64,000 nt of DNA, from NCBI RefSeq assembly GCF_044324785.1, contig NZ_CP172127.1; one strand, written 5' to 3'. This stretch comes from Escherichia coli. GTDB lineage: Bacteria > Pseudomonadota > Gammaproteobacteria > Enterobacterales > Enterobacteriaceae. Numbering within the stretch: the first letter of the stretch is position 1; each line of letters begins with the position of its first letter. A program made the position numbers and the translations under genes. A model generated the notes under the pieces. It did no database searches. It was not told the DNA's origin and saw only the letters and a list, made by a program, of their open reading frames with translations. Shown here piece after piece: positions 7,659-34,630 of this stretch.

Positions 7659-7686
7659 TGCGAATACCTGAATATCGAATATGGGT

Positions 7687-10260: not shown

Positions 10261-10295
10261 AAATATGCGCTGTGCAGGGTTTTTGCTGTGCGCAG

Positions 10296-10326
10296 CGTGA
10301 TGCGCTTTAAGATATCGTGTTAATCT
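10296..10326 (+). promoter_or_regulatory. possible retron promoter (extended -10 TGt-TAATCT, weak -35)
   Basis: TG at 10318-10319 followed by taatct at 10321-10326, about 6 nt upstream of the predicted msr 5' end at 10332. Weak match; could also be read-through from pyrE. Confidence 0.25.
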
Positions 10327-10331
10327 GCTTT

Positions 10332-10525
10332 CGCCAGCAGTGGCAATAGCGTTTCCGGCCTTTTGTGCCGGGAGGGTCGGCGAGTCGCCGACTTAACGCC
10401 AGTAGTATGTCCATATACCCAAAGTCGCTTCATTGTACCTGAGTACGCTTCGCGTACGTCGCGCTGACGCGCTCAGTACAGTTACGCGCCTTCGGGATGG
10501 TTTAATGGTATTGCCGCTGTTGGCG
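10332..10525 (+). ncRNA. msr-msd: retron msr-msd non-coding RNA (template and primer for msDNA), bounded by a1/a2 inverted repeats
   Basis: a1 10332-10348 (cgccagcagtggcaata) pairs with a2 10509-10525 (tattgccgctgttggcg) as a 17-bp RNA duplex with two G-U wobbles; unpaired G at 10349 in the context AUAG-C is the candidate branching G; msr hairpins ccggc-cttttgt-gccgg (10355-10371) and gtcggcg-agt-cgccgac (10376-10392); msd palindromic block 10434-10480. Confidence 0.6.
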
Positions 10526-10557
10526 CCTCTTTTGGCCGCCGTGATGTGGAGAGTGGA

Positions 10558-11517
10558 ATGGATGCTACCCGGATAACCCTTCTGGCGCTCGATTTGTTCG
10601 GCTCGCCGGGCTGGAGCGCCGATAAAGAAATACAGCGGCTGTATGCGCTCAGTAATCATGCCGGACGCCATTACCGACGCATTATTCTTTCTAAACGCCA
10701 CGGTGGTCAGCGGCTGGTGTTAGCCCCTGATTACTTGCTCAAAACCGTACAGCGCAACATTCTTAAGAACGTTCTTTCACAATTTCCGCTTTCCCCTTTT
10801 GCTACAGCCTACCGACCAGGTTGCCCAATTGTCAGCAACGCGCAGCCTCACAGCCAACAGCCACAAATACTGAAACTCGATATCGAAAACTTTTTCGATA
10901 GTATTAGCTGGTTACAGGTCTGGCGTGTGTTTCGCCAGGCCCAGTTGCCACGTAATGTGGTAACCATGCTGACCTGGATTTGTTGTTATAACGACGCGTT
11001 ACCGCAGGGGGCACCAACTTCGCCAGCCATTTCCAATCTTGTGATGCGCTGTTTTGATGAGTGCATCGGGGCATGGTGCCAGGCACGAGGAATTACCTAC
11101 ACCCGCTACTGCGATGACATGACTTTTTCAGGTCACTTCAATGCCCGCCAGGTTAAAAATAAAGTGTGCGGATTGTTAGCGGAGATGGGCCTGAGCCTCA
11201 ATCAACGCAAAAGCTCCCTGATAGCTGCCTGTAAGCGCCAGCAGGTAACCGGGATTGTTGTTAATCACAAACCACAGCTTGCCCGCGAAGCGCGGCGGGC
11301 GCTGCGTCAGGAAGTACACTTATGCCAAAAATATGGCGTCATTTCGCATCTTAGTCGTCGTGGTGAACTTGATCCTTCATGCGATCTCCATGCACAGGCA
11401 ACGGCGTATCTTTATGCTTTGCAGGGAAGAATAAACTGGCTATTGCAAATCAATCCTGAGGATGAGGCCTTTAAACAGGCGAGGGAAAGTGTAAAGCGAA
11501 TGCTGTTGGCATGGTAA
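10558..11517 (+). CDS. ret: retron-type reverse transcriptase (319 aa)
   Basis: Start at ATG 10558 preceded by GGAGAG; contains RT motifs ...LPQGAPTSPAISNL... and ...ITYTRYCDDMTFSG... (YxDD box); size typical of retron RTs with no extra fused domain. Confidence 0.9.
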   Translation: MDATRITLLALDLFGSPGWSADKEIQRLYALSNHAGRHYRRIILSKRHGGQRLVLAPDYLLKTVQRNILKNVLSQFPLSPFATAYRPGCPIVSNAQPHSQQPQILKLDIENFFDSISWLQVWRVFRQAQLPRNVVTMLTWICCYNDALPQGAPTSPAISNLVMRCFDECIGAWCQARGITYTRYCDDMTFSGHFNARQVKNKVCGLLAEMGLSLNQRKSSLIAACKRQQVTGIVVNHKPQLAREARRALRQEVHLCQKYGVISHLSRRGELDPSCDLHAQATAYLYALQGRINWLLQINPEDEAFKQARESVKRMLLAW

Positions 11518-11525
11518 GAAAAGCG

Positions 11526-11547
11526 TCAGGCAGACGTTTCTGCCTGA
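11526..11547. terminator. hairpin between convergent RT and slmA genes
   Basis: tcaggcaga-cgtt-tctgcctga perfect 9-bp stem in the 43-bp gap. Confidence 0.45.
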
Positions 11548-11560
11548 ACGTTTGGGAGAA

Positions 11561-12157
11561 TTACTGCAACTGTGCGGCAATTAGCGGCCAGCGGGCGTCA
11601 AAATCATCCGTCGGGCGGTATTTAAACTCGCTGCGGACAAAGCGTGACAGCATACCTTCACAGAAGGCCAGGATCTGGCTTGCCAGCAGGGTTTCATCGG
11701 TGGTGTAACCTTCACCCTCACGCATTCTCTTTTCGCGCAATACCTGACGCAACTGCGCTTCAATACGCTCGAACAGCTGGTTGATGCGCCCTTGCAGGCG
11801 ATCCTGTTCAAACATTAGTGCATGACCAGTGAGGATGCGGGTCAGGCCAGGATTACGCTCACCAAAACCGAGAAGCAGCAACACAATCAGACGCAGGCGC
11901 GCTGTGGTGTCCTTCTCATCTTTCAGAATCAGATTGATGCGAGTAATCAGGCTATCTTCGATAAACTCAATCAGGCTATCGAACATGCGGGTCTTACTGG
12001 GGAAGTGGCGATACAGTGCCGCTTCGGAAACGCCGACAGAGGCGGCCAGTTTTGCCGTCGTGATACGTTGGCTTCCATCGCTGGATTCCAGCATCAGCGC
12101 CAGAGACTGAAGTATTTCCTCGCGACGGTTCCTTTTCGCAGTTTGTTTTTCTGCCAT
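11561..12157 (-). CDS. slmA: nucleoid occlusion factor SlmA (TetR family)
   Basis: ORF trimmed to [52 protein letters not shown]... Confidence 0.9.
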
Positions 12158-12263
12158 GTTACAAAATACCCCTGAAAATAAGCACTTGCCAGGCGGCACC
12201 CACGCTATGACCGCAAACGAAATGTTTGCGGCTATGTTATGACGTTATTCGGATGCGTATGTG

Positions 12264-15498: not shown

Positions 15499-16308
15499 AT
15501 GCCTGAATTACCTGAAGTTGAAACCAGCCGCCGCGGCATAGAACCGCATCTCGTTGGTGCAACCATTCTTCATGCGGTGGTGCGCAACGGACGCTTGCGC
15601 TGGCCGGTTTCAGAAGAGATCTACCGTTTAAGCGACCAACCAGTGCTTAGCGTGCAGCGGCGGGCTAAATATCTGCTGCTGGAGCTGCCTGAGGGCTGGA
15701 TTATCATTCATTTGGGGATGTCTGGCAGCCTGCGCATCCTTCCAGAAGAACTTCCCCCTGAAAAGCATGACCATGTGGATTTGGTGATGAGCAACGGTAA
15801 AGTGCTGCGCTACACCGATCCGCGCCGCTTTGGTGCCTGGCTGTGGACCAAAGAGCTGGAAGGGCATAATGTGCTGACCCATCTTGGACCGGAGCCGCTT
15901 AGCGACGATTTCAACGGTGAGTATCTGCATCAGAAGTGTGCGAAGAAAAAAACGGCGATTAAACCGTGGCTGATGGATAACAAGCTGGTGGTAGGGGTAG
16001 GGAATATCTATGCCAGCGAATCGCTGTTTGCGGCGGGGATCCATCCGGATCGGCTGGCGTCATCACTGTCGCTGGCAGAGTGTGAATTGTTAGCTCGGGT
16101 GATTAAAGCGGTGTTGCTGCGTTCGATTGAGCAGGGCGGTACAACGCTGAAAGATTTTCTGCAAAGTGATGGTAAACCGGGCTATTTCGCTCAGGAATTG
16201 CAGGTTTACGGGCGAAAAGGTGAGCCGTGTCGGGTGTGCGGTACGCCGATTATGGCGACTAAACATGCGCAGCGGGCAACGTTTTATTGTCGGCAGTGCC
16301 AGAAGTAA
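15499..16308 (+). CDS. mutM: formamidopyrimidine-DNA glycosylase
   Basis: ORF trimmed to [20 protein letters not shown]...; C-terminal zinc finger CRVCGTPI...CRQCQK. Confidence 0.9.
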
Positions 16309-16346
16309 TTCATGCGCGCCGGATGGCATACCATCCGGCATAAACG

Positions 16347-18111
<1,765 letters not shown>

Positions 18112-18424
18112 AGTAAATAGCTGACTTATGGATGTGCTGGGGATTCTATGTATTTAGCTGTGGCTTTACCATTACTTTTCCCGTTTTTGACTTAAATAGC
18201 AATTTACCCGCCAATTCTTGCTGAACATCTATACTTTTTTTGTATTTTTATGCGATTCATTGATTTCTGCAGTACGTGCAGGAAGGAATCGCAGAGCAAC
18301 AGTGAAAGAATATGGTTGCTAATGATTTTATTTGATTGATTTCTTTATTGAAAATCAACAATGTGCTTAAAAATCATTCGGGTCGGATTGCCGCGAAAGA
18401 AGTGATACACTAGCGCGTCAATAT

Positions 18425-18474
18425 CAGTGCGGTATCAGTATTCAGGTAGCTGTTGAGCCTGGGGCGGTAGCGTG
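18425..18474 (+). promoter_or_regulatory. JUMPStart element containing ops site (GGCGGTAGCGTG) for RfaH-dependent antitermination of the waaQ operon
   Basis: cagtgcggtatcagtattcaggtagctgttgagcctggggcggtagcgtg read directly; ops 12-mer at 18463-18474. Confidence 0.8.
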
Positions 18475-18523
18475 CTTTTTCTGCTTCACCTTAATCGGAT
18501 AATCTCAACAAAAAGAGTTACTT

Positions 18524-19582
18524 GTGGATAAGCCATTTCGAAGAATTTTGCTCATTAAGATGCGTTTTCATGGGGATATGTTATTAACTACTCCCGTCAT
18601 TAGTTCGCTGAAAAAAAATTACCCTGACGCAAAAATCGATGTGCTGCTTTATCAGGACACCATCCCGATCCTGTCTGAAAATCCAGAGATTAACGCGCTC
18701 TACGGCATAAAAAATAAAAAAGCAAAAGCCTCAGAAAAAATTGCCAACTTTTTTCATCTCATCAAGGTATTACGTGCCAATAAGTATGACCTTATCGTCA
18801 ATCTTACCGATCAATGGATGGTTGCTATACTGGTTCGCTTATTAAATGCCCGTGTGAAAATTTCCCAGGATTATCATCATCGGCAGTCTGCTTTTTGGCG
18901 TAATAGTTTCACTCATTTGGTGCCGTTGCAGGGTGGAAATGTGGTGGAAAGTAACTTATCCGTGCTATCGCCATTGAGACTTGAATCGTTGGTGAAGCAG
19001 ACAACCATGAGTTACCCGCCTGCAAGCTGGAAACGTATGCGTCGCGAACTTGATCACGCTGGTGTTGGACAAAATTATGTGGTTATCCAACCTACGGCGC
19101 GGCAAATCTTCAAATGCTGGGACAACGCCAAGTTTTCCGCTGTGATTGATGCCTTACATGCTCGTGGTTATGAAGTCGTTCTGACGTCCGGCCCAGATAA
19201 AGACGATCTGGCCTGCGTCAATGAAATTGCCCAGGGATGCCAGACGCTACCAGTAACGGCGCTGGCCGGAAAGGTGACCTTCCCGGAACTTGGTGCGTTA
19301 ATCGATCATGCCCAGCTGTTTATTGGCGTTGATTCCGCACCGGCGCATATTGCCGCTGCAGTTAATACGCCGCTGATATCGCTGTTTGGTGCGACAGACC
19401 ATATTTTCTGGCGTCCCTGGTCAAATAACATGATTCAATTCTGGGCGGGAGATTACCGGGAAATGCCAACGCGCGATCAGCGTGACCGAAATGAGATGTA
19501 TCTTTCGGTTATTCCGGCGGCAGATGTCATTGCTGCTGTCGATAAATTACTGCCCTCCTCCACGACAGGTACGTCGTTATGA
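18524..19582 (+). CDS. waaQ: LPS heptosyltransferase III
   Basis: GTG start at 18524 keeps the conserved heptosyltransferase N-terminus (RRILLIK...GDML.TTPV); product recognised as WaaQ. Confidence 0.8.
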   Translation: MDKPFRRILLIKMRFHGDMLLTTPVISSLKKNYPDAKIDVLLYQDTIPILSENPEINALYGIKNKKAKASEKIANFFHLIKVLRANKYDLIVNLTDQWMVAILVRLLNARVKISQDYHHRQSAFWRNSFTHLVPLQGGNVVESNLSVLSPLRLESLVKQTTMSYPPASWKRMRRELDHAGVGQNYVVIQPTARQIFKCWDNAKFSAVIDALHARGYEVVLTSGPDKDDLACVNEIAQGCQTLPVTALAGKVTFPELGALIDHAQLFIGVDSAPAHIAAAVNTPLISLFGATDHIFWRPWSNNMIQFWAGDYREMPTRDQRDRNEMYLSVIPAADVIAAVDKLLPSSTTGTSL

Positions 19583-20703
19583 TCGTTGCTTTTTGTTTAT
19601 ATAAATATTTTCCCTTTGGCGGTTTGCAGCGCGATTTCATGCGTATTGCTCAGACAGTCGCCGCCCGAGGTCATCATGTTCGGGTTTATACCCAGTCGTG
19701 GGAAGGCGAATGCCCTGATGTATTTGAACTGATCAAAGTGCCGGTTAAATCGCATACCAATCACGGGCGCAATGCGGAGTATTTTGCCTGGGTGCAAAAA
19801 CATTTACGCGAACATCCCGTCGATAGAGTCGTTGGATTTAATAAAATGCCGGGGCTGGACGTTTATTATGCCGCTGATGTTTGTTATGCCGAGAAAGTAG
19901 CGCAGGAAAAAGGCTTTTTCTATCGCCTGACGTCACGTTATCGCCATTATGCCGCCTTTGAGCGGGCAACCTTCGAACAGGGCAAGCCGACACAGCTGCT
20001 GATGCTGACAGATAAGCAAATCGCCGATTTCCAGAAACATTATCAGACTGAAGCGGAGCGTTTTCATATTCTGCCACCGGGGATTTATCCTGATCGTAAA
20101 TATAGCCAGCAGCCAGCCAATAGCCGTGAAATCTTCCGTAAGAAGAATGGAATAACCGAACAACAATATTTATTGTTGCAGGTCGGTTCAGACTTCACGC
20201 GTAAAGGTGTCGATCGTTCCATTGAAGCACTTGCTTCATTACCGGATACGCTGCGCCACAACACATTGCTATATGTTGTTGGGCAGGATAAACCGCGAAA
20301 ATTTGAGGCGCTGGCAGAAAAACGCGGCGTGCGCAGTAATGTTCACTTCTTCTCGGGGCGCAACGATGTCTCGGAATTAATGGCGGCGGCGGATTTATTA
20401 CTGCATCCTGCCTACCAGGAAGCGGCGGGAATTGTGCTGCTGGAAGCGATTACTGCAGGATTACCGGTACTAACAACTGCCGTTTGCGGCTATGCGCATT
20501 ATATTGTCGACGCCAATTGCGGCGAGGCTATTGCTGAGCCATTCCGCCAGGAAACATTGAATGAGATTTTACGCAAAGCGTTAACGCAATCTTCATTGCG
20601 CCAGGCCTGGGCGGAAAATGCGCGACATTATGCTGATACACAAGATTTATACAGTCTGCCAGAAAAAGCGGCGGATATCATAACGGGTGGTCTGGATGGT
20701 TGA
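19579..20703 (+). CDS. waaG: LPS core glucosyltransferase I (GT4)
   Basis: 374-aa [42 protein letters not shown]... Confidence 0.9.
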
Positions 20704-21493
20704 ACTTAAAGAGCCGTTTGCCACGTTATGGCGCGGTAAAGATCCTTTTGAGGAAGTTAAAACCTTGCAGGGTGAGGTTTTTCGTGAACTGGAAACTCGC
20801 CGCACTCTGCGCTTTGAAATGGCGGGCAAAAGCTATTTTCTCAAATGGCATCGCGGCACGACCCTGAAAGAGATAATCAAAAATTTACTCTCATTACGGA
20901 TGCCAGTATTAGGCGCAGACCGCGAATGGAATGCGATTCATCGACTGCGGGATGTCGGCGTTGATACTATGTATGGGGTGGCATTCGGCGAAAAAGGCAT
21001 TAATCCGCTGACCAGAACCTCGTTTATTATAACCGAAGATCTGACACCAACCATCAGTCTGGAAGATTACTGTGCTGACTGGGCGACTAACCCTCCAGAT
21101 GTTCGCGTAAAGCGTATGCTTATTAAGCGTGTCGCGATGATGGTGCGCGATATGCATGCTGCGGGCATTAACCACCGTGACTGTTATATCTGTCATTTCC
21201 TGCTGCACTTGCCTTTTTCCGGTAAGGAAGAGGAGTTAAAAATTTCGGTAATTGACCTGCACCGGGCGCAGCTTCGCACGCGCGTTCCACGTCGTTGGCG
21301 CGATAAAGATCTTATTGGGCTTTATTTTTCTTCGATGAATATCGGCCTGACTCAGCGGGATATCTGGCGGTTTATGAAAGTGTATTTTGCCGCCCCGCTT
21401 AAAGACATTCTCAAGCAGGAACAAGGACTGCTGTCGCAAGCAGAAGCAAAAGCCACAAAAATCAGGGAAAGAACGATTAGAAAATCGTTGTAA
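20696..21493 (+). CDS. waaP: LPS core heptose I kinase
   Basis: ORF trimmed to [41 protein letters not shown]... Confidence 0.9.
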
Positions 21494-21535
21494 CCCGTAA
21501 CTTATTTTTGCCAAAAATTTGGATACAGAGTAAAT

Positions 21536-22543
21536 ATGTCTCAACTCAATGATAGTGACATCATCCTTTTTGAGTATAATTTTCATTATCAAAATATAAG
21601 ATCTAAAAATACTCTTGATATAGCATTTGGTATTGACAGAAATTTTCTTTTTGGATGTGGTGTAGCCATTGCATCTATTCTATTAAACAATAGCGAAATC
21701 TCTTGTGAATTTCATGTTTTCACAGATTATATCAGTGATAAAGACAAGTTATATTTTTCCGATTTAGCAAAACAATATAATTCAAGAATTAATATTTATG
21801 TTATCAATTGTGATAAGCTGAAGTCATTACCAAGCACGAAAAACTGGACTTACGCAACATATTTTCGATTTATAATTGCAGATTATTTCTATAATAAACA
21901 TGAAAAAATACTATATCTTGATGCAGATATTGCTTGCAAGGGTAGTATTAAAGAACTCTTAGATTATCAATTTTCTACTAATGAAATTGCCGCAGTTGTA
22001 GCTGAAAGAGATATTGAATGGTGGCAGAATCGAGCCTCGGTATTAACTACACCACAATTAGGTTCTGGATATTTCAATGCTGGTTTTTTGCTGATAAATA
22101 TTGATGAGTGGAATCTAAATAACATTTCGTCAAAAGCTATTGAAATGCTGCGTGACCCAGATTGGGTAAGTAAAATCACCCACCTTGATCAAGATGTACT
22201 GAATGTATTATTGAATGGTAAAGTGAAGTTTGTTTCGGGGAAATATAATACCCGATATAGTATTAACTATGAATTAAAAGACAAAGTTGATAATCCAGTT
22301 AATGATGACACCGTGTTTATACACTATGTGGGACCTACAAAACCCTGGCATGAGTGGGCTGATTATCCGGTGTCACGTAGTTTTTTGATCGCCAAAGCAG
22401 CTTCTCCGTGGTGTAAAGAAGATTTACTTAAACCTGTGAATAGCAATCAGTATCGGTATTGTGCAAAACATAAATTTAAACAAAAGCATTATATTGCAGG
22501 CATTTTTAATTATTTAAAGTATTATAAAGAAAAATGCTTCTAA
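21536..22543 (+). CDS. waaI: LPS outer-core glycosyltransferase, family GT8 (WaaI/WaaO-like; first outer-core alpha-1,3 hexosyltransferase)
   Basis: 335-aa ORF with GT8 features (FGIDRNF..., DxD in LYLDADI, C-terminal HYVGPTKPWHEW); AT-rich. Symbol is an R3-type assignment inferred from gene order. Confidence 0.55.
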   Translation: MSQLNDSDIILFEYNFHYQNIRSKNTLDIAFGIDRNFLFGCGVAIASILLNNSEISCEFHVFTDYISDKDKLYFSDLAKQYNSRINIYVINCDKLKSLPSTKNWTYATYFRFIIADYFYNKHEKILYLDADIACKGSIKELLDYQFSTNEIAAVVAERDIEWWQNRASVLTTPQLGSGYFNAGFLLINIDEWNLNNISSKAIEMLRDPDWVSKITHLDQDVLNVLLNGKVKFVSGKYNTRYSINYELKDKVDNPVNDDTVFIHYVGPTKPWHEWADYPVSRSFLIAKAASPWCKEDLLKPVNSNQYRYCAKHKFKQKHYIAGIFNYLKYYKEKCF

Positions 22544-22568
22544 AGATTTAAGGTTAAAATAATTCAAT

Positions 22569-23276
22569 ATGATATATAATAAAACGATAAATGGGTTGAA
22601 AGTTTTCATAAAAGATAATGATCCCTTTTATGAGCAAGTTCTGAATGACTTTTTAACTTGCAGGGTTAAAACATTAAAAGTTTTTCGTTCTATTGATGAT
22701 ACTAAAGTCATTCTTATTGACACTGCTCGTGGACCTCTTGTACTTAAAGTTTATGCGCCAAAGCATAAAATGATCGAACGTTTCTTAAAATCTTGCATAA
22801 AAAAAGATTATTATGAAAATTTAATTTATCAAACCGATCGGGTACGTGGTGAAGGCATTCAATCAATTAATGACTATTTTTTGCTTGCTGAACGTAAAAC
22901 ATTAAATTTCGCGCATTATTATATTATGCTCATTGAGTATATTGAAGGTGTCGGGTTAAATGAGTATTTGGAAATTTCTGAAGAACTGAAGGATCAATTA
23001 TCAGAATCGATAAAAGAGTTGCATCAGCATGGAATGGTGTCTGGCGATCCTCATAAAGGAAATTTTATAGTATCTGAAAAAGGTTTAAGACTAATTGACC
23101 TTTCAGGTAAAAAAACAACCGCAGTTTTAAAAGCAAAAGATCGCATTGATCTTGAACGGCACTATAATATAAAAAATGAATTGAAAGACTTTGGCTATAC
23201 ATATCTTATATTCAAAAAGAAAATTAAAAAAGCAATCAGGGATGTAAAAGTCAAACTAGGCTTGAAGAGCAAATAA
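22569..23276 (+). CDS. waaY: LPS core heptose II kinase
   Basis: 235-aa ORF, kinase-like (...HQHGMVSGDPHKGNFIVSEKGLRLIDLSGK...). Confidence 0.75.
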   Translation: MIYNKTINGLKVFIKDNDPFYEQVLNDFLTCRVKTLKVFRSIDDTKVILIDTARGPLVLKVYAPKHKMIERFLKSCIKKDYYENLIYQTDRVRGEGIQSINDYFLLAERKTLNFAHYYIMLIEYIEGVGLNEYLEISEELKDQLSESIKELHQHGMVSGDPHKGNFIVSEKGLRLIDLSGKKTTAVLKAKDRIDLERHYNIKNELKDFGYTYLIFKKKIKKAIRDVKVKLGLKSK

Positions 23277-23300
23277 TGATTATGATGAAGGGTAATTAAA

Positions 23301-24314
23301 TTGGATTTTAAACATCTTACTCAATTTAAAGATATAATTGAACTGGACAAGCGCCCCGTTAAACTTGATGAACGGGAAACGTTTAATGTCTCATGGGGTA
23401 TTGATGAGAACTACCAGGTTGGGGCTGCGATTTCAATTGCTTCAATTCTTGAAAATAATAAACAAAACAAATTTACCTTTCACATAATCGCTGATTACTT
23501 AGACAAAGAGTATATTGAATTATTATCACAATTAGCAACGAAGTATCGAACAGTAATTAAATTATATCATATTGATTCTGAGCCATTGAAGGCGCTACCT
23601 CAATCAAATATCTGGCCAGTATCTATTTATTATCGTTTGCTTTCATTTGATTATTTTTCTGCGCGATTGGATTCATTATTATATCTTGATGCTGATATCG
23701 TCTGTAAGGGTTCATTGAACGAGTTAATAGCATTAGAGTTTAAAGATGAATATGGGGCTGTGGTAATTGATGTAGATGCTATGCAAAGTAAAAGCGCTGA
23801 GCGTTTATGTAATGAGGATTTTAACGGTAGCTATTTTAACTCTGGTGTAATGTATATTAATTTACGGGAATGGTTACAACAAAGACTAACGGAGAAATTC
23901 TTTGATCTATTATCAGATGAGTCAATTATCAAAAAATTAAAGTATCCGGATCAAGATATTTTAAACTTAATGTTTTTACATCATGCTAAAATATTACCGA
24001 GAAAATATAATTGTATTTATACTATAAAGTCAGAATTTGAAGAAAAAAATAGTGAATATTACACCCAGTTTATTAATGATGAAACTGTCTTCATACATTA
24101 TACTGGTGTAACTAAGCCATGGCATGATTGGGCGGACTACGCATCTGCAGATTATTTTCGTAATATTTATAATATATCTCCATGGAGAAACATACCTTAT
24201 AAAAAAGCTGTTAAAAAACATGAGTACAAAGAAAAATATAAACACTTGCTTTACCAGAAAAAATTTCTCGATGGTGTTTTTACAGCAATTAAATATAATG
24301 TTATGAAAGGTTAA
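23301..24314 (+). CDS. waaJ: LPS outer-core glycosyltransferase, family GT8 (WaaJ-like alpha-1,2-glucosyltransferase)
   Basis: 337-aa ORF with GT8 features (SWGIDENYQVGA..., LYLDADIVCKG, HYTGVTKPWHDW). Symbol inferred from order. Confidence 0.55.
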   Translation: MDFKHLTQFKDIIELDKRPVKLDERETFNVSWGIDENYQVGAAISIASILENNKQNKFTFHIIADYLDKEYIELLSQLATKYRTVIKLYHIDSEPLKALPQSNIWPVSIYYRLLSFDYFSARLDSLLYLDADIVCKGSLNELIALEFKDEYGAVVIDVDAMQSKSAERLCNEDFNGSYFNSGVMYINLREWLQQRLTEKFFDLLSDESIIKKLKYPDQDILNLMFLHHAKILPRKYNCIYTIKSEFEEKNSEYYTQFINDETVFIHYTGVTKPWHDWADYASADYFRNIYNISPWRNIPYKKAVKKHEYKEKYKHLLYQKKFLDGVFTAIKYNVMKG

Positions 24315-24322
24315 TATTCGAG

Positions 24323-25465
24323 ATGGTTGATAAAATAATATTTACAGTTACTCCTATTTTTTCAATTCCTCCTCGCGGAGCGGCCGCTGTTGAAACGTGG
24401 ATGTATCAGGTTGCTCAGCGTACCAATTTCCCAAATCGTATTGTTTGTATCAAGAATCCAGGATACTCAAATTACACCTTTGTTAATGATAATTGTAGTA
24501 TTCATAGGGTTGGATTCAGTCGCATATATAAGCGGTTATTTCAAAAATGGACAAGACTTGATCCTCTTCCATATTCACAGAGAATATTGAATATTGCCCA
24601 TGATTTTCCTATAACGAAAGAAAGTGTTATTGTAGTTCATAATAGCATGAAGCTATACACTCAAATTCGTAAGCGAGCTCCTCAGGCAAGAGTGGTTATT
24701 CATATGCATAATGCATTTGAACCAAAATTGCTTGAGCAAAATGTTAAAATGATAGTGCCTAGTTTATACTTGAAAAAGTATTACCAATCTTATTTAGCAA
24801 ATGCAGATATTGAGATTGTACCAAATGGAATTGATTTAGAAACCTATCAATCTACTTTTCAGCCGATCACTAGAAGCGAACTTAATATCTCCCCTGAAGA
24901 GAAAATTATTTTTTATGCTGGGCGTATCGTCCCTGATAAAGGCATATTACTGTTGATGCAATCATTCGAAAAATTGGCCGCTGCTCACAAAAATTTAAAA
25001 TTAGTTGTGATTGGTGATTATACAGAAATGAGTAAAAGTGACAAAGGTGCATATCAACACAATGTCAGGGAAATTGCAAAACGTTTGAAGGATCGTTGCA
25101 TTATGTTAGGAAGCATACCGCCTGAAAAGATGCATTGTTATTACCCACTGGCAGATTTAGTCATCATTCCTTCCCAGTTCCAGGAACCATTTTGCATGGT
25201 GGCAATTGAAGCTATGGGGGCTGGTAAGCCTGTTTTAGTGAGTACGCGTGGGGGGATGACGGAATTTGTCAAAGAAAATACTACGGGATTCCATTTAAAA
25301 GAACCTATGACTGCAGACTCTATAAGCAGCGATATTTTAAAAACGTTAGCGAATCCTGAATTAACAGCAGTTGCAAAGCAAGGTCAGGATTTTGTGTTTG
25401 ATCACTACAGTTGGGATGGCGTAACTCAAAGATTTGAAGAGGTCATTCATAATTGGTTTGAATAA
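24323..25465 (+). CDS. waaD: LPS outer-core glycosyltransferase, family GT4 (WaaD-like, R3-type terminal transferase)
   Basis: 380-aa ORF with GT4 EX7E-type region (...EPFCMVAIEAMGAGKPVLVSTRGGMTEFV...). Symbol is a tentative R3-type assignment. Confidence 0.45.
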   Translation: MVDKIIFTVTPIFSIPPRGAAAVETWMYQVAQRTNFPNRIVCIKNPGYSNYTFVNDNCSIHRVGFSRIYKRLFQKWTRLDPLPYSQRILNIAHDFPITKESVIVVHNSMKLYTQIRKRAPQARVVIHMHNAFEPKLLEQNVKMIVPSLYLKKYYQSYLANADIEIVPNGIDLETYQSTFQPITRSELNISPEEKIIFYAGRIVPDKGILLLMQSFEKLAAAHKNLKLVVIGDYTEMSKSDKGAYQHNVREIAKRLKDRCIMLGSIPPEKMHCYYPLADLVIIPSQFQEPFCMVAIEAMGAGKPVLVSTRGGMTEFVKENTTGFHLKEPMTADSISSDILKTLANPELTAVAKQGQDFVFDHYSWDGVTQRFEEVIHNWFE

Positions 25466-25467
25466 AT

Positions 25468-25500
25468 AAAAAGGCCGCATTATGCAGCCTTTTTTATTTT
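25468..25500. terminator. hairpin plus T-rich tract between convergent waaD-like and waaL
   Basis: aaaaaggccgcattatgcagccttttttatttttt. Confidence 0.4.
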
Positions 25501-26709
25501 TTACTTGTTTTTCATTGCTAATAATAAGCCGGCGTAAACGCCTAATAAATTTGGTTCAATTTGTTCTACGTTTCCACGGATAACAAAATAACCTATAAAA
25601 GATAGTAAGATTATATAATATGCATTATATGGTGAGCGGTTTTTATTCTGGACGCCATTTTTTATACACTCTTTCAATATTGCACAGTATAGCATCATAA
25701 GACTTATCAGCCCTAATAAACCAGTGCCAAACCAGATGAATAGCGCAAAATTATGTGGCCCTATCGATTGTCTAAAGGTCCATTCTGGATAATCAACGAC
25801 ACGTTTATTATAGACATCTTTATATGCAACGTTACCGTAACCGTAACCAATAACAGGATTTTCTAATATTAGATCGAGTGCGCTGCCTTGAGTACCATTT
25901 GCATAGCGATAAGAACTATTAGTTTGTTGAAGTTTATACGTTAGCTTTGCGGTCATCTCCTTATGTGTGAAAATAACCGACAATGCAATGATGGAAACCA
26001 TTACTCCTACTAATAGTAACTTCCATTGTTTAAACATCAGAATCCATATTAATCCAATGACTAACACGGAAAGCCAGGCCCCTCTGGATAAAGTTCCTAA
26101 TATCAGAAAAATAAAAATAAAGCTTAGAACCACAAAAGAAATGCGGTATTTTGCTGATTTGATAAGCCAGAGATTTAACAATGCAGGGAATAAAAAGACC
26201 ATCGAGTCAGAAATGCTACGGTGTCTATAATCTGCGAATGGCATTATCCCTTGTTGATAGTCCTTATAATAGGCAATCAATTCAGAAAAACAGCGTAAGC
26301 CCAACGCACTAATAAATGAGAAGAAAACGATTTTTTCGACATCTTCTCTTTTCTCGTCTCTCAATATGACTGGTATTGCTATTGTGCATAGTAAAGTATT
26401 CTCAATAATAGCTTTGAAAATTTCCTTCATGCTAGCCCCTGCATCAGGGGATTGAAGAAGTGACAGCAATGCAGCAATAGTTAATATGGCAACACTACCA
26501 AAAAGAAATGTTTTAAATAGTGAGAGATAGTGTTTTGGCCGTTTGCAGAGATAGACGATTGTCGTTATTGTCATAAGAATAACAATAAGATGTTTATACC
26601 TTGTAATCCCACCCAAAAAATAGGTGGTAATGAATAAGAATACGAGAGCTCTGTTCCAGTACGCTATCCAGTTTTTTTTCTCGAGAGAGAAAAATAATGT
26701 TGAGGTCAT
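25501..26709 (-). CDS. waaL: O-antigen ligase
   Basis: 402-aa polytopic membrane protein, AT-rich, located upstream of waaC in the hldD-waaF-waaC-waaL operon. Confidence 0.8.
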   Translation of the reverse strand: MTSTLFFSLEKKNWIAYWNRALVFLFITTYFLGGITRYKHLIVILMTITTIVYLCKRPKHYLSLFKTFLFGSVAILTIAALLSLLQSPDAGASMKEIFKAIIENTLLCTIAIPVILRDEKREDVEKIVFFSFISALGLRCFSELIAYYKDYQQGIMPFADYRHRSISDSMVFLFPALLNLWLIKSAKYRISFVVLSFIFIFLILGTLSRGAWLSVLVIGLIWILMFKQWKLLLVGVMVSIIALSVIFTHKEMTAKLTYKLQQTNSSYRYANGTQGSALDLILENPVIGYGYGNVAYKDVYNKRVVDYPEWTFRQSIGPHNFALFIWFGTGLLGLISLMMLYCAILKECIKNGVQNKNRSPYNAYYIILLSFIGYFVIRGNVEQIEPNLLGVYAGLLLAMKNK

Positions 26710-27698
26710 CTTATCTCCGATGTCAACTTATTGATTATTATTTCAAGATTTAAATTTTGAAAAACGGTTTGAGCTGGCAAATCTGCAAGAGACATACTTG
26801 TAGAACGACACTCTACTTGATTCTTCCCATACCCACCAATTAATCCCGGATCGGTTGGTCCATAAACCGTGATATTGGGTCTATCCAGTGCCGCCGTTAA
26901 ATGGCTTAACCCCGTATCCACCGACACTACAAATTTAGCCCCGGCCAGCACGCGGGCAACGCCTTCCAGACTCATCTTCGGCAATACTTCAACATAAGCA
27001 AATCCTTCCGCCAGTCGTTTCGCCCGTTCTTCCTCATGCGGCGCGCCCCACGGAAGTTTAATCCGTATTCCTGAATCAGCCAGTAAACCAATCAATTCTC
27101 GCCAGTGTTCTTCCGGCCAGTGTTTATCATCACGGGTCGTCGCATGAAGAAATACGGCATATTCGCCAGCATCTGTAGGCAGGTTCGTCAGGAAATGCTG
27201 TGCAATAGCATAATCGCCCTGGGTTTGCGGTTTGCTATAGCCCAGACTTTTGGCAAACAGTTCGCGGGTGCGTTCTACGGCGTGCTGCTGTTTTGCAATA
27301 TGATGCTTACGATTGTAAAACAGGCTGGCTAACGGTTCGCGAGCGGTTTGCCAGTCCAATCCATGCTTTACGCCATGCGCCAGACGTGTCACCAGTGCCG
27401 CGCTTTTTACCAGCCCCTGAGCGTCGATAACTGCGTCATAGTTCTCTGCTTGTAGCGCTTCACGAAACGCTTTGCGTTCAGCTTTTATGGGGGCCGAGAA
27501 CCAGGCTTTACGCCAGCGACGTATTGCCACAGGAATAACTCGCTCAACGGCAGCGTGCCAGGAAGGAATCTGTGCGAACCCTTCTTCCACCACCCAGTCA
27601 AACTTAATCCCTGGGATTGCCTGCTGGGCATCAGTGAGTGCGGGCAACGTATGGAGAACATCGCCCATCGACGATGTTTTAACGATCAAAACCCGCAT
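26706..27698 (-). CDS. waaC: LPS heptosyltransferase I
   Basis: MRVLIVKTSSMGDVLHTLPALTDAQQAIPGIKFDWVVEEGF... Confidence 0.9.
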   Translation of the reverse strand: MRVLIVKTSSMGDVLHTLPALTDAQQAIPGIKFDWVVEEGFAQIPSWHAAVERVIPVAIRRWRKAWFSAPIKAERKAFREALQAENYDAVIDAQGLVKSAALVTRLAHGVKHGLDWQTAREPLASLFYNRKHHIAKQQHAVERTRELFAKSLGYSKPQTQGDYAIAQHFLTNLPTDAGEYAVFLHATTRDDKHWPEEHWRELIGLLADSGIRIKLPWGAPHEEERAKRLAEGFAYVEVLPKMSLEGVARVLAGAKFVVSVDTGLSHLTAALDRPNITVYGPTDPGLIGGYGKNQVECRSTSMSLADLPAQTVFQNLNLEIIINKLTSEIR

Positions 27699-27701
27699 CC
27701 G

Positions 27702-28748
27702 TCAGGCTTCCTCTTGTAACAATAGTGCGTTGAGTTCTTCCAGTACGTGCTGGGGAGTAATGTCGATCAAGCTCTGGTGATAACCCTCCGCAGCGTCACC
27801 TTTACGCACTTTGTGATAGCCGGTAATCAGACGGATCACGCGCGCTTTATGGGATAGCGGTGGTGTGAAGTCCGGGCTACTCGGACCATACAGGGCAACC
27901 AGCGGACGATTGAGCGCCGCCGCAACGTGCATCAGACCAGAATCGTTAGTAACAATGGCTTTACAGGCTGCAATCAGGATAACCGCTTGATCAAGCTGTG
28001 TTTCCCCCGCCAGGTTACGACACCATGCCTGCTGCTCGGTATTCAAAGCGGCAAGAATCTCATTGCCCGCTTCATGATCTTTCGCCGAGCCAAACAGAAC
28101 CACCTGATAACCTTCATCAATCAGCTGCTTTGCCAGCTCCGCATAGTGGTAGTGTGGCCACCGTTTTGCCGGACCAAACTCCGCACCCGGGCAAAAGCCA
28201 ATCATCGGACGTTCTGATGAAAGCGAAAATTGATTACAGGTATATGATTTTTCACCTTCGCTCACCTGCAACTGCGGCCATAACAATGGCTGCGGCAGAT
28301 CTTGTGCTGTACGCATAATGCCTTTGTCATAGGCCAGCGCGACATAGCGTTCCACCATTAGCGGCCAGGCTTCTTTATCGAGCACGCGTACATCGTTGAG
28401 TAAACCGTAGCGCATCTCGCCGCGCCAGCCGGTGCGATGAGGAATACCCGCGAAGAAAGGCACTAATGCGGACTTGAAGGAGTTGGGTAAGACGTAGGCG
28501 CGGTCGTAGCGCTTTTCACGCAGACTATGACCCAGTTTGCGGCGTTCGCCGATTTCCAGCGCTCCGTGACCGAGAGGCATAGGGATAGCTTCGTTAACTT
28601 CCGGCATCCGCGATAATAATGGACGGCACCATGCCGGTGCCATCACGTCGATTATCGCCTGGGGATAGCGCGCCTGGAGCGTGCGATAGAGACTTTGCGA
28701 CATCATCATGTCGCCAACCCAAGACGGGCCGATCACCAGTATTTTCAT
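27702..28748 (-). CDS. waaF: LPS heptosyltransferase II
   Basis: MKILVIGPSWVGDMMMSQSLYRTLQARYPQAIIDVMAPAWCRPLL... Confidence 0.9.
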   Translation of the reverse strand: MKILVIGPSWVGDMMMSQSLYRTLQARYPQAIIDVMAPAWCRPLLSRMPEVNEAIPMPLGHGALEIGERRKLGHSLREKRYDRAYVLPNSFKSALVPFFAGIPHRTGWRGEMRYGLLNDVRVLDKEAWPLMVERYVALAYDKGIMRTAQDLPQPLLWPQLQVSEGEKSYTCNQFSLSSERPMIGFCPGAEFGPAKRWPHYHYAELAKQLIDEGYQVVLFGSAKDHEAGNEILAALNTEQQAWCRNLAGETQLDQAVILIAACKAIVTNDSGLMHVAAALNRPLVALYGPSSPDFTPPLSHKARVIRLITGYHKVRKGDAAEGYHQSLIDITPQHVLEELNALLLQEEA

Positions 28749-28757
28749 GCAGAGCTC

Positions 28758-29690
28758 TTATGCGTCGCGATTCAGCCAGGCCATGTATTCCGTTACACCT
28801 TCCGCAACGGTTTTGAACGGTTTGTCGTAACCCGCCGCGCGCAGATTTGTCAGATCTGCCTGCGTGAACGCCTGATAGCGGCCTTTCAGTTTATCCGGGA
28901 ACGGAATGTATTCGATCTGGCCTTTCTTGTGATAAGCAAGCGTTGCATCGGCTACTGCCTGGAAGGATTCTGCACGACCGGTGCCGAGGTTGAAGATGCC
29001 GGAAACGCCATTTTCCAGGAACCACAGATTCACATCAGCCACGTCGCCCACATAGACGAAGTCGCGTTTGAAGTTCTCGCTACCTTCAAACAGCTTCGGT
29101 GATTCACCGTTGTTAAGCTGGGTGTTGAGATGGAAAGCGACGCTCGCCATGCTGCCTTTATGGCCTTCACGCGGTCCATAAACGTTGAAATAACGGAATC
29201 CAACAATCTGCGAGTTGGCTTCCGGCAGGATTTGGCGAACATATTCATCAAACAGGAATTTTGAGTAACCGTAGACGTTCAACGGTTTTTCGTACTCGCG
29301 GGATTCAATAAAGTCGGAGGTGCGTCCGCCGTAGGTGGCTGCGGAAGAGGCATACAGGAACGGGATTTCGCGCTCCAGACAGTAGTGCAACAGCTCTTTG
29401 GAGTATTGATAGTTGTTATCCATCATATACTTGCCATCCCACTCGGTGGTGGAAGAGCATGCGCCCTCGTGGAAAATCGCTTCGACATCACCGAACTCTT
29501 CGCCAGCCATAATCTGGATCAGGAAGTCTTCCTTATCCATATAGTCCGCGATATTCAGATCCACCAGGTTCACAAACTTGGTGCCGTCTTTCAGGTTGTC
29601 CACCACCAGAATATCGGTGATGCCTTTATCATTCAGGGCCTTAACGATGTTGCTGCCGATAAAGCCCGCGCCGCCGGTAACGATGATCAT
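28758..29690 (-). CDS. hldD: ADP-L-glycero-D-manno-heptose 6-epimerase
   Basis: [42 protein letters not shown]... Confidence 0.95.
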
Positions 29691-29993
29691 AACTGTAACC
29701 TTCGAATTATGGAGTCAGAGACAATCTCAGACACGAATGTCTGTAATCATACCATCACATCCGAATCCCTTCAGCCCTTTACATAGAGGTGCAAGGATGC
29801 TAATTGCAACAAACTAGTTTGGGTTTTAGCGAGTCCTTCATGGCGGATGTTGGTTTTGTATGTGAATAGTGCTTTAGTATCAATATTCCGATGTATGATA
29901 AATAACGGAAGCATTTGAATGGATAATATACAGTATACATTCTGTTAATATTTATGATATAATTCTTTTTTTATATTAATGGTCTTATTAGTA

Positions 29994-30851
29994 ATGAAAT
30001 CATCCACCACAATTATCACTGCATATTTTGACATTGGTAGAGGGGATTGGACTGCTAATAAAGGGTTCCGTGAAAAACTAGCTCGTTCAGTTGATGTTTA
30101 TTTTAGTTACTTTGAGCGTCTGGCCGCACTTGAAAATGAGATGATTATTTTCACTTCTCCCGATTTGAAACCAAGGGTTGAAGCGATTCGCAACGGAAAA
30201 CCAACAACGGTTATCGTTATCGATATAAAAAAGAAATTTAGATATATCAGAAGTCGTATCGAAAAAATTCAAAAAGATGAGTCGTTTACAAATAGACTTG
30301 AGCCGCGGCAATTAAAAAACCCAGAGTACTGGTCACCAGAGTATGTATTGGTATGTAACCTTAAGGCCTATTTTGTAAATAAAGCTATCAACATGGGCTT
30401 AGTGAAAACGCCTCTTGTTGCGTGGATAGATTTTGGCTATTGCCGTAAGCCAAATGTAACTCGAGGATTGAAAATTTGGGATTTCCCATTTGATGAAAAT
30501 AAGATGCATCTTTTCACTATAAAAAAAGGGCTTACTGTCACATCTCAACAACAGGCTTTTGATTTCATGATTGGCAATCATGTATATATTATTGGTGGCG
30601 CAATTGTTGGTTCACAGCATAAATGGAAAGAATTCTATAAATTAGTTCTGGAAAGTCAAAAAATAACCCTAAACAATAACATTGTGGACGATGACCAGGG
30701 CATCTTTGTCATGTGCTATTACAAACGTTCCGATCTCTTCAACCTAAACTATCTGGGGAGAGGAAAATGGTTCGATTTGTTTCGCTGCTTCAGGAGTAAC
30801 ACTTTAGGGGCAAAAATGCAGGCGCTGAGAATTTTCCTTTCAAGAAAATAG
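29994..30851 (+). CDS. htrL: HtrL/YibB family protein
   Basis: ORF trimmed to MKSSTTIITAYFDIGRGDWTANKGF...; AT-rich gene at the conserved position between hldD and kbl. Confidence 0.75.
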   Translation: MKSSTTIITAYFDIGRGDWTANKGFREKLARSVDVYFSYFERLAALENEMIIFTSPDLKPRVEAIRNGKPTTVIVIDIKKKFRYIRSRIEKIQKDESFTNRLEPRQLKNPEYWSPEYVLVCNLKAYFVNKAINMGLVKTPLVAWIDFGYCRKPNVTRGLKIWDFPFDENKMHLFTIKKGLTVTSQQQAFDFMIGNHVYIIGGAIVGSQHKWKEFYKLVLESQKITLNNNIVDDDQGIFVMCYYKRSDLFNLNYLGRGKWFDLFRCFRSNTLGAKMQALRIFLSRK

Positions 30852-30897
30852 GTTTCCCTCCATTAGTGGGTAGCGTTTTGATGCCAACTGAGATAGG

Positions 30898-30930
30898 AAA
30901 AATGATGCTTTGGCATCATTTTTTCTTTTT
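30898..30930 (+). terminator. rho-independent terminator after htrL
   Basis: aatgatgc-tttg-gcatcatt followed by ttttctttttat. Confidence 0.55.
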
Positions 30931-31125
30931 ATATCAATGCAGTAAAATCGCGCATCATTATGCCCAGCCAAAACTGTACAGTTTTTCTACTATCTGTAGG
31001 TGTTGAGAGACATCAAGATACACGTTATTTATCCTGAATTTTGCAGAAGTGTTAACGCGTCATCTCGTCGCGACCTATAAGTTTGGGTAATATGTGCTGG
31101 AATTTGCCCTGTCTGGAGAATCGCA

Positions 31126-33595: not shown

Positions 33596-34630
33596 ATGAT
33601 GAACAGCACCAATAAACTTAGTGTTATTATTCCGTTATATAATGCGGGTGATGATTTCCGCACTTGTATGGAATCTTTAATTACGCAAACCTGGACTGCT
33701 CTGGAAATCATTATTATTAACGATGGTTCAACGGATAATTCTGTTGAAATAGCAAAGCATTACGCAGAAAACTATCCGCACGTTCGTTTGTTGCATCAGG
33801 CGAATGCTGGCGCATCGGTGGCGCGTAATCGTGGGATCGAGGCGGCGACGGGTAAATATGTCGCTTTTGTCGATGCTGACGATGAGGTCTATCCCACCAT
33901 GTACGAAACGCTGATGACCATGGCGTTAGAGGACGACCTCGACGTGGCGCAGTGCAACGCTGACTGGTGTTTTCGTGAAACGGGAGAAACCTGGCAATCC
34001 ATCCCCAGCGATCGCCTTCGCTCAACCGGTGTATTAACCGGCCCGGACTGGCTGCGGATGGGGCTTTCTTCGCGCCGTTGGACTCACGTTGTCTGGATGG
34101 GGGTTTATCGCCGCGATGTTATTGTTAAAAATAACATTAAATTTATTGCCGGATTACATCATCAGGATATTGTCTGGACAACAGAATTCATGTTTAACGC
34201 GCTGCGTGCGCGATATACCGAGCAATCGTTATATAAATATTATCTGCATAATACGTCAGTGAGTCGGTTGAATAGACAAGGGAATAAAAACCTTAATTAT
34301 CAACGTCACTATATTAAGATTACCCGCCTGCTAGAGAAATTAAATCGAAATTATGCCGACAAAATTACGATTTACCCGGAATTTCATCAGCAAATAACTT
34401 ACGAAGCATTGCGTGTTTGCCATGCGGTGCGCAAAGAGCCGGATATTATTACCCGCCAACGGATGATTGCCGAGATATTTACTTCCGGTATGTATAAGCG
34501 CCTGATTACCAATGTGCGCAGCGTGAAGGTGGGTTACCAGGCGTTACTGTGGTCTTTCCGCTTATGGCAATGGCGCGACAAAACGCGGTCGCACCATCGC
34601 ATTACGCGTAGCGCCTTTAATTTGCGCTAG
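33596..34630 (+). CDS. waaH: GT2 family glycosyltransferase WaaH (YibD)
   Basis: MMNSTNKLSVIIPLYNAGDDFRTCMESLITQTWTALEIIIINDGSTDNS... GT2 signature. Confidence 0.85.
   Translation: MMNSTNKLSVIIPLYNAGDDFRTCMESLITQTWTALEIIIINDGSTDNSVEIAKHYAENYPHVRLLHQANAGASVARNRGIEAATGKYVAFVDADDEVYPTMYETLMTMALEDDLDVAQCNADWCFRETGETWQSIPSDRLRSTGVLTGPDWLRMGLSSRRWTHVVWMGVYRRDVIVKNNIKFIAGLHHQDIVWTTEFMFNALRARYTEQSLYKYYLHNTSVSRLNRQGNKNLNYQRHYIKITRLLEKLNRNYADKITIYPEFHQQITYEALRVCHAVRKEPDIITRQRMIAEIFTSGMYKRLITNVRSVKVGYQALLWSFRLWQWRDKTRSHHRITRSAFNLR

Follow-up and report, generated by a model that had tools for sequence, protein, structure and literature searches.

The lipopolysaccharide (LPS) core of Escherichia coli is encoded by the waa locus, which occurs in five long-established types (K-12, R1, R2, R3 and R4). 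The R3 locus (as typified by the prototype F653, O157:H7, strain 042 and Shigella flexneri 2a) consists of waaQ, waaG, waaP, waaI, waaY, waaJ and waaD, which are met by the convergently oriented waaL, waaC, waaF and hldD; the R3 core of O157 is stated in PMC13293308, and the enzyme roles in R3 strains are described in PMC9927288 and PMC3184986, each of which cites Kaniuk et al. 2004. The variable cassette of the R1 and R4 loci comprises waaO, waaT, waaY and waaW, together with waaV (in R1) or waaX (in R4), and their waaL lies on the strand of the waaQ operon, without detectable similarity to the R3 ligase gene. The R2 cassette (8.5 kb) holds a GT8 gene (wabA in PMC13293308), waaB, waaO, waaJ(R), waaY, waaZ and waaK, while hybrid loci have been reported for R2/K-12 and R1/R4 (PMC13293308). 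In the annotated K-12 record the corresponding genes read rfaS, waaB, waaO(rfaI), rfaJ, rfaY, waaZ and waaU, which agrees with the layout (waaS-B-I-J-Y-Z-U) that the initial annotation had given. The core locus of Salmonella enterica is related to that of R2.

Here we analysed a stretch of 64,000 nucleotides of an E. coli genome (contig NZ_CP172127.1; hereafter, the 64-kb window), in which the block situated between waaP and waaC is almost certainly the variable section of an intact waa locus of the R3 type (Table 1). The list of open reading frames places, 3' of waaQ-waaG-waaP, a GT8 gene, the waaY kinase, a second GT8 gene, a GT4 gene and a convergent waaL (minus strand), all five of them intact and with zero internal stops; both reading frames and strands match exactly the order that had been read from the letters alone. 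The content, order and integrity of these genes, together with the type identity and the boundaries of the block, were established directly in the present analysis. Upstream, the products of waaQ and waaP (RfaQ and RfaP) and, downstream, those of waaC and waaF (RfaC and RfaF) score above the curated NCBIfam cut-offs, while for the WaaG protein zero NCBIfam models reach theirs, its name being taken from the amino-acid identity (98.4-99.2%) to annotated waaG of the 042, O157, R1 and R4 loci. The hldD gene was named from the rfaD annotation in homologous records, and the conserved hldD-waaF-waaC part is 98-100% identical in amino acids to all core types. The waaI gene (labelled waaO by RefSeq) encodes the Pfam domains Glyco_transf_8 and Glyco_transf_8C, and the LDADI (DXD) motif is kept in both GT8 genes.

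Table 1. Features of the waa locus and its leader (positions refer to the 64-kb window)
Feature	Coordinates	Strand	Evidence and remarks
JUMPstart element with ops sequence GGCGGTAGCGTG (18462-18473)	18436..18474	+	Rfam RF01707, 55.2 bits (gathering score 35); waaQ operon leader
waaQ (heptosyltransferase III), R1/R3/R4-lineage allele	18524..19582	+	NCBIfam NF007742, 709.9 bits
waaG (GT4; predicted glucosyltransferase I, first outer-core glucose)	19579..20703	+	Identity to annotated waaG
waaP (heptose I kinase)	20696..21493	+	NCBIfam NF011703, 480.6 bits
waaI (GT8; predicted UDP-galactose:(glucosyl) LPS alpha-1,3-galactosyltransferase)	21536..22543	+	335 aa; NF011718, 614.7 bits (cut-off 461)
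waaY (heptose II kinase), R3 allele	22569..23276	+	235 aa; NF007684, 387.5 bits; Pfam WaaY
waaJ (GT8)	23301..24314	+	337 aa, TTG start; Pfam Glyco_transf_8 and Glyco_transf_8C
waaD (GT4)	24323..25465	+	380 aa; NF012028 (subfamily), 767.2 bits; Pfam Glycos_transf_1
Hairpin, 12-bp stem, A run and T run at its sides	25468..25494	.	Terminator scan
waaL (O-antigen ligase), R3-specific allele	25501..26709	-	402 aa; NF012031, 690.8 bits; Pfam Wzy_C
waaC type-specific 3' end (last ~37 codons, GC 0.33); right edge of the cassette	26706..26817	-	Homology break
Conserved remainder of the hldD-waaF-waaC-waaL operon	26818..29690	-	waaC to 27698, waaF 27702-28748, hldD 28758-29690

The assignment to R3 is carried by typing, protein identity and co-linearity. 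In-silico PCR (primers R3-F and R3-R and the pairs of the other types from PMC13293308, with five reference loci as controls, each of which was typed correctly) yielded the R3 waaJ-waaD amplicon only (23385-24405, 1021 bp, 0 mismatches), the R3-R site lying at 23385 in waaJ and the R3-F site at 24386 in waaD. Compared with their counterparts in O157:H7 Xuzhou21 and strain 042, the five block proteins (WaaI, WaaY, WaaJ, WaaD and WaaL) show 97.6-99.5% identity; no protein from a K-12, R1, R2 or R4 reference locus exceeds 58%. WaaI reaches 97.6-98.8% to O157 and 042, WaaY 98.3-98.7% to R3 loci (versus 51-57% to other types), the waaJ product 98.2-99.4% to the RefSeq waaJ coding sequences of O157 and 042, WaaD 99.2-99.5% to R3 loci (56.7% to R2 WaaK) and WaaL 98.0-98.8% (51.5% to R2 WaaL, with zero detectable match to K-12, R1 or R4 reference-locus proteins). 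Both comparisons proposed in the initial annotation (of the proteins with typed loci, and core-type PCR, here in silico) bear out its R3 reading (waaI-waaY-waaJ-waaD with an R3 waaL), with no best match falling to R1, R2 or R4, and no feature of the sequence speaks against it; the transferase names waaI, waaJ and waaD (as well as waaY), which it had drawn from order and family, are those used for R3 strains in the literature (PMC9927288, PMC3184986). Furthermore, positions 16000-31000 align co-linearly and without gaps with strain 042 (98.6%) and O157:H7 (98.4%). For F653, whose sequence was represented by the arms of published primers, these arms and those of S. flexneri 2457T fall at the ends of the genes, as expected (including both ends of waaI), with 0-3 true mismatches per arm, the S. 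flexneri 2457T arms matching O157 better than the window.

In comparison to the described R3 loci, the window shows the same gene order and orientation, 98.4-99.0% nucleotide identity, the R3 amplicon, a waaJ that likewise starts with TTG and a WaaC of 330 aa with the extended tail; within the locus the difference is allelic only (~1-1.6% of nucleotides), while the downstream waaH is intact in the window and frameshifted in O157:H7 Xuzhou21. The R1 and R4 loci resemble the window in waaQ, waaG, waaP and the region between waaA and waaQ (98.6-100% nucleotide identity), as well as in the left edge (the waaP stop) and the right edge (inside waaC) of the cassette. The likeness to R2 lies at the opposite end, where the waaQ operon likewise closes with a GT4 gene (waaK) and meets a convergent waaL from the lineage seen in the window, whereas waaQ, waaG and waaP of R2 are of K-12 lineage, with products only 72-90% identical to those of the window. 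Within this picture, WaaQ is 98.3-98.9% identical to the proteins of R1, R3 and R4 loci and 72-73% to those of K-12 and R2.

The type-variable segment is larger than the five genes themselves (21536-26709), as it extends from 21494 (directly after the waaP stop) to about 26815-26817, so that it takes in the final ~110 bp of waaC, with the last ~37 codons of this gene. Homology with the R1 and R4 loci stops at the last base of waaP (blastn break at 21493), homology with K-12, R1 and R4 restarts at 26815-26818, and the divergence in the WaaC alignment begins at approximately residue 295. The GC content changes at the same positions (0.475 falls to 0.315 at 21493/21494, and 0.33 rises to 0.524 at ~26817): the block has a GC of 0.333 against 0.49-0.53 in the flanks, and the five block genes (0.306-0.369) are poorer in GC than waaQ, waaG and waaP (0.467-0.484) or waaC and waaF (0.503-0.539). 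The initial annotation had rightly described the block, waaL included, as AT-rich relative to waaQGP and waaCF, and had taken this as consistent with a horizontally exchanged cassette. The exchange itself fits the data in that sharp boundaries at the GC step and the scatter of R3 over phylogroups (A, B1, D and E) are consistent with exchange by recombination; the argument from base composition calls for a caveat, since AT-richness is equally pronounced in the cassettes of all five core types (GC 0.332-0.354) and other R3 strains are no more distant from the window in the cassette than in its flanks, so that the AT-richness tells nothing in particular about this strain. Low GC is a mark of the region, and not of recent import into this strain. 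The scenario in which the block was recently acquired by horizontal transfer (e.g. with a mobile element), rather than having long resided there as an allele exchanged through homologous recombination, could draw on the abrupt GC steps and on the phylogroup scatter, but we regard it as improbable: every core type is equally poor in GC at this site, cassette and flanks are equally diverged from other R3 strains, and the boundaries carry neither integrase or transposase genes nor flanking repeats, direct or inverted (the sole repeats being paralogous GT8 motifs common to waaI and waaJ). No tRNA genes were found in the 64-kb window; separately, a permissive Rfam scan of the non-coding region of the retron returned zero described families.

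The whole block is present in 1363 of the 5426 complete E. coli genomes (98.4-99.0% identity), and the R3 allele of the window differs by 1.0-1.6% from all complete genomes of E. coli searched in RefSeq, with only 3 of the 1363 R3 genomes in this set reaching at least 99.0% identity to the cassette. This divergence, together with the approximately 8 residues by which WaaI and WaaL each differ from their O157 counterparts, could be taken to indicate a hybrid or sub-variant of R3, in which allelic differences or a foreign segment alter the core structure or the ligase specificity. We consider this very unlikely, and rejected a hybrid core type, as the alignment to the R3 loci of 042 and O157 is continuous, without any inserted or replaced segment, the divergence is even over the five genes and equal to that of the flanks, and the exact WaaI, WaaY, WaaD and WaaL proteins (four of the five were looked up) are public on 210 to more than 1000 E. 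coli contigs. As the best nucleotide identity is only 99.0%, an origin from Shigella or another Escherichia species was weighed too, but E. coli was retained: the flanks show 97-98.8% identity to E. coli, the exact proteins carry E. coli as their deposited species, and O157 is matched better than the window by the S. flexneri 2457T primer arms. That the locus belongs to another established type (K-12, R1, R2 or R4) and is R3-like in gene families only is barely conceivable and was ruled out by in-silico PCR, protein identities and nucleotide alignment: GT8, GT4, WaaY and WaaL families do occur in all five types, and WaaD and WaaL do have their distant R2 relatives, but the window holds no primer site of any non-R3 type even with up to two mismatches allowed, the top non-R3 identities are 40-58% (versus 98-99% to R3), and the five-gene block lacks counterparts of waaS, waaB, waaZ, waaU, waaK, waaT, waaW, waaV and waaX.

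The region consists of two convergent operons (the waaQ operon and hldD-waaF-waaC-waaL) that meet at a likely hairpin terminator. The JUMPstart/ops element, which characterizes RfaH-dependent operons, lies 50 bp upstream of waaQ. The ops sequence recruits the antiterminator RfaH, and by analogy with published work on near-identical genes the waaQ operon would make use of it. The terminator scan returned 1 site (0.2 expected), namely the hairpin within the 35 bp that separate waaD from the convergent waaL, which is likely a bidirectional intrinsic terminator. Moreover, the ATG of waaL overlaps the waaC stop codon (ATGA), an arrangement through which the two genes may be translationally coupled.

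Transcripts reading from the JUMPstart/ops leader would provide WaaQ, WaaG and WaaP (common to R1/R4) and subsequently the R3-specific enzymes, with sugar specificities predicted from those published for near-identical genes. WaaG would transfer glucose I onto heptose II, WaaI would add an alpha-1,3-galactose, WaaJ an alpha-1,2-glucose and WaaD a further alpha-1,2-glucose, while WaaY would phosphorylate heptose II; the operon on the other strand would provide for the heptose steps and encode the ligase WaaL in its R3-specific form, expected to join the undecaprenyl-linked O antigen to the finished core. An R3 outer core is defined chemically by a GlcI-Gal-GlcII backbone whose GlcII bears an alpha-1,2-Glc, and serologically by binding of R3-specific antibody. 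Kaniuk and colleagues are said to have identified, in 2004, the glucose added by WaaJ as the O-antigen attachment site, and the same work reportedly found that, in the R3 core of O157, the GlcNAc side branch on the galactose depends on WabB, whose gene lies outside the waa locus. There is a slight chance that the R3 allele of the window, in combination with non-waa modification genes (such as wabB), might give a core subtly unlike the F653 and O157 structures (e.g. in its decoration with a side branch or in the donor that WaaL prefers). The secondary sources conflict on the sugar of WaaD: the enzyme adds glucose according to PMC9927288, a waaD mutant is described as being without GlcNAc in PMC3184986, and the family-based annotation reads 'LPS N-acetylglucosaminyltransferase'.

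Taken together, the R3-type locus is standard, well-characterised and already known, carried by O157:H7 and by ~25% of the complete E. coli genomes; the type can be assigned automatically by a published tool, and its assignment here raises no new questions. R3 status is useful metadata for the strain, as the core type affects recognition by phages and protists, antibody cross-reactivity and the attachment of the O antigen.

In agreement with the initial annotation, which had read an R3-type outer-core block in the order GT8, waaY kinase, GT8, GT4 and convergent waaL after waaQ-waaG-waaP, the ORF scan and Pfam domains reproduced this arrangement, and no internal stops were found in any of the waa-locus ORFs. 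The K-12 gene set named there for comparison likewise corresponds to the annotated K-12 record (rfaS, waaB, waaO (rfaI), rfaJ, rfaY, waaZ and waaU). As waaG matched no NCBIfam model at the curated cut-off, its name rests on 98-99% identity with waaG genes annotated elsewhere. For core typing, the reference loci were taken from complete genomes with annotation. R3 (layout waaI-waaY-waaJ-waaD) was represented by O157:H7 Xuzhou21 and 042, R1 by an O145:H28 strain carrying a GT2 waaV-like gene, R2 by strain ESY001, which has waaZ and waaK, and R4 by strain E118, which has a GT25 waaX-like gene; K-12 was also included. In-silico PCR with nine typing primers (Trofimova et al. 2025; PMC13293308, Table 2) on the window and all reference loci gave for each control only its own-type product, at the published size except for R1 (853 bp versus 842), while the sole product in the window was the R3 amplicon (23385-24405, exactly 1021 bp, 0 primer mismatches), with no primer site of another core type present there at ≤2 mismatches. 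The five cassette proteins shared 97.6-99.5% identity with their O157:H7 and 042 counterparts, and only 40-58% with the closest proteins of K-12, R1, R2 or R4, so that the best matches lay with R3 and not with R1, R2 or R4; for WaaL, no match could be detected among the K-12, R1 or R4 ligases, whereas the R2 ligase was 51.5% identical to it and R2 WaaK 56.7% identical to the GT4 protein (WaaD). Furthermore, the homology arms of recombineering primers from the R3 prototype F653 (PMC9927288) and S. flexneri 2a 2457T (PMC3184986) mapped to the expected ends of waaG, waaI, waaJ and waaD, with 0-3 true mismatches per arm. Taken together, these independent lines of sequence evidence support the predicted R3 core type.

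Features of the outer-core locus and of other parts of the window
Feature	Coordinates	Orientation	Basis or context
Ash-family ORF	2613-3680		P4-like element
C4 antisense RNA	3072-3159	minus	P4-like element
isrK RNA	3222-3299	minus	P4-like element
AntA/AntB antirepressor	3849-4682		P4-like element
tyrosine integrase	6405-7742		P4-like element
yicC	7847-8710		adjoins P4-like element
reverse transcriptase	10546-11517		323 aa
slmA/ttk	11561-12199	minus	
JUMPstart element	18436-18474		Rfam; 50 bp upstream of waaQ
waaQ	18524-19582	co-directional with cassette ORFs 1-4	ORF scan; NCBIfam RfaQ equivalog above curated cut-off
waaG	19579-20703	as waaQ	ORF scan; identity to annotated waaG genes
waaP	20696-21493	as waaQ	ORF scan; NCBIfam RfaP equivalog above curated cut-off
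cassette ORF 1 (waaI)	21536-22543	as waaQ	Pfam Glyco_transf_8 and C-terminal domain; NCBIfam 3-alpha-galactosyltransferase equivalog above curated cut-off
cassette ORF 2 (waaY)	22569-23276	as waaQ	Pfam WaaY; NCBIfam RfaY equivalog above curated cut-off
cassette ORF 3 (waaJ)	23301-24314	as waaQ	Pfam Glyco_transf_8 and C-terminal domain
cassette ORF 4 (waaD)	24323-25465	as waaQ	Pfam Glycos_transf_1 (GT4); NCBIfam subfamily-level match
hairpin	25468-25494		12-bp stem between A run and T run; in 35-bp gap between waaD and waaL stop codons
cassette ORF 5 (waaL)	25501-26709	minus, convergent	Pfam Wzy_C O-antigen-ligase domain; NCBIfam RfaL equivalog above curated cut-off
waaC	26706-27698	minus, after waaL	ORF scan; NCBIfam RfaC equivalog above curated cut-off
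waaF	27702-28748	minus	ORF scan; NCBIfam RfaF equivalog above curated cut-off
hldD	28758-29690	minus	ORF scan
yibB/htrL	29979-30851		region 29739-31000
waaH	33596-34630		344 aa
1904-aa ORF	46565-52279	minus	between lldP and yibL
HlyD-family adaptor	59078-60214		near RHS ORF
RHS ORF	62030-63961	minus	right window edge

The variable cassette is slightly larger than the span first reported, extending from 21494 to ~26817 (5.3 kb, GC 0.333), since homology with the R1 and R4 loci (98.5-98.7% at the nucleotide level, through waaA, waaQ, waaG and waaP) ends at 21493, the final base of the waaP stop codon, and resumes at 26815-26818, ~110 bp inside the waaC 3' end, where the WaaC tails are type-specific. 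WaaC is nearly identical between types to ~residue 294, beyond which the tails differ in sequence and length (the R3 tail being common to the window, O157 and 042), and GC within waaC is 0.33 for the tail and 0.524 for the remainder. The AT-richness attributed to the block (waaL included) was borne out by GC values of 0.306-0.369 for the five cassette genes (window overall 0.489), as compared to 0.467-0.484 for waaQ, waaG and waaP and 0.503-0.539 for waaC and waaF. As to the proposal that this composition marks a horizontally exchanged cassette, exchange by homologous recombination in the conserved flanks would account for the sharp edges, which coincide with the change in GC, and for the occurrence of R3 in several phylogroups (A 11.9%, B1 49.7%, D 28.9%, E 84.3%; PMC13293308). 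Such an origin is generally accepted (Heinrichs et al. 1998, as cited by PMC13293308). AT-richness does not point to recent import into this strain. A strain-specific recent import is opposed by the similar cassette GC of all five core types (0.332-0.354 at the same site), by the lack of mobility genes and boundary repeats at the cassette edges, and by a divergence from 042 and O157 (98.1-99.6% identity) in the same range as that of flanking housekeeping genes; we therefore consider low GC a regional property in the species. Upstream, waaQ, waaG and waaP form two lineages, the window proteins being 98-99% identical to those of R1, R3 and R4 and only 72-90% to those of K-12 and R2; likewise, 18112-21493 (the waaA-waaQ intergenic region and these three genes) falls with R1, R3 and R4 (98.4-100% at the nucleotide level), K-12 and R2 being only 70-80% identical.

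The JUMPstart element ahead of waaQ contains the ops sequence GGCGGTAGCGTG; ops is known to bring in the antiterminator RfaH, which lets transcription proceed along long LPS operons. The hairpin between waaD and waaL may act as a bidirectional intrinsic terminator, and the overlap of the waaL ATG with the waaC TGA (ATGA) suggests translational coupling. Published roles of nearly identical genes (PMC9927288 and PMC3184986, each with reference to Kaniuk et al. 2004, J Biol Chem 279:31237) lead us to infer that WaaG would add glucose I, WaaI the HexII galactose and WaaJ the HexIII glucose, that WaaD would place a glucose substituent on HexIII, and that WaaY would phosphorylate heptose II and WaaL ligate the O antigen. 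For WaaD the sources conflict, as PMC9927288 (citing Kaniuk 2004) describes a glucosyltransferase and PMC3184986 implies addition of GlcNAc. The family-based RefSeq/NCBIfam name of the window GT4 is 'lipopolysaccharide N-acetylglucosaminyltransferase' (that of waaI being waaO), and one NCBI record in the same cluster as WaaD is named UDP-glucose--(glucosyl)LPS alpha-1,2-glucosyltransferase. In the R3 core of O157, the GlcNAc branch is made by WabB, whose gene lies outside the waa locus.

Beyond the cassette, hldD showed only 95.9-97.2% nucleotide identity to all six reference loci (neighbours 98-99%) at 99.7-100% protein identity, the excess divergence being almost entirely synonymous; recombination with a more distant lineage may account for this allele. 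The yibB/htrL gene (GC 0.372) is carried by the window as well as by 042, O157 and K-12. The R1, R2 and R4 reference loci lack it: there, homology stops at 29738 and kbl comes directly after hldD; consistent with this gap, 7 of the 11 full-length matches in the spread of hits had only 82% query coverage. An intact waaH encodes a UDP-glucuronate:LPS(HepIII) glycosyltransferase, whereas that of O157:H7 Xuzhou21 is annotated as frameshifted. The 1904-aa ORF has no counterpart at its site in K-12, and since its 3' part matches ehaG, the gene of a trimeric autotransporter adhesin in O157, with a nucleotide identity of only 84-88%, the site is a variable adhesin locus. The ORF at the right edge, with an HlyD-family adaptor gene nearby, corresponds to the C-terminal portion of an RHS element core protein (NF041261, model positions 747-1261), with a score of 1078 bits that falls short of the curated cut-off (2000).

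Between pyrE (end 10260) and slmA/ttk, ~1.3 kb (10262-11559) absent from 042 encodes a reverse transcriptase with a YCDD motif; a hit of this protein to the PADLOC model RT_Ec107-like (E = 5.5e-132) makes the insert a putative Ec107-like retron. No Rfam family matched its presumed msr/msd region (10200-10700). Retron-Ec107 was reportedly described at precisely this pyrE-ttk site. Positions 1-7742 are part of a P4-like integrative element, for which homologous records also annotate a TOPRIM/DUF927 primase, and at least 80% of the length of this stretch (7.8 kb) occurs in only 110 of 5426 complete genomes. No tRNA gene lies in the window, so a tRNA within it cannot be the attachment site.

The full outer-core block was present in 1363 of the 5426 complete E. 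coli genomes (25%), in single copy, always chromosomal and 98.4-99.0% identical to the window. Exact-protein lookup, covering WaaI, WaaY, WaaD and WaaL of the five cassette proteins, found all four among existing E. coli protein entries, on 210 to >1000 contigs. The block is thus a known R3 waa locus of textbook type, useful for strain typing and little beyond.
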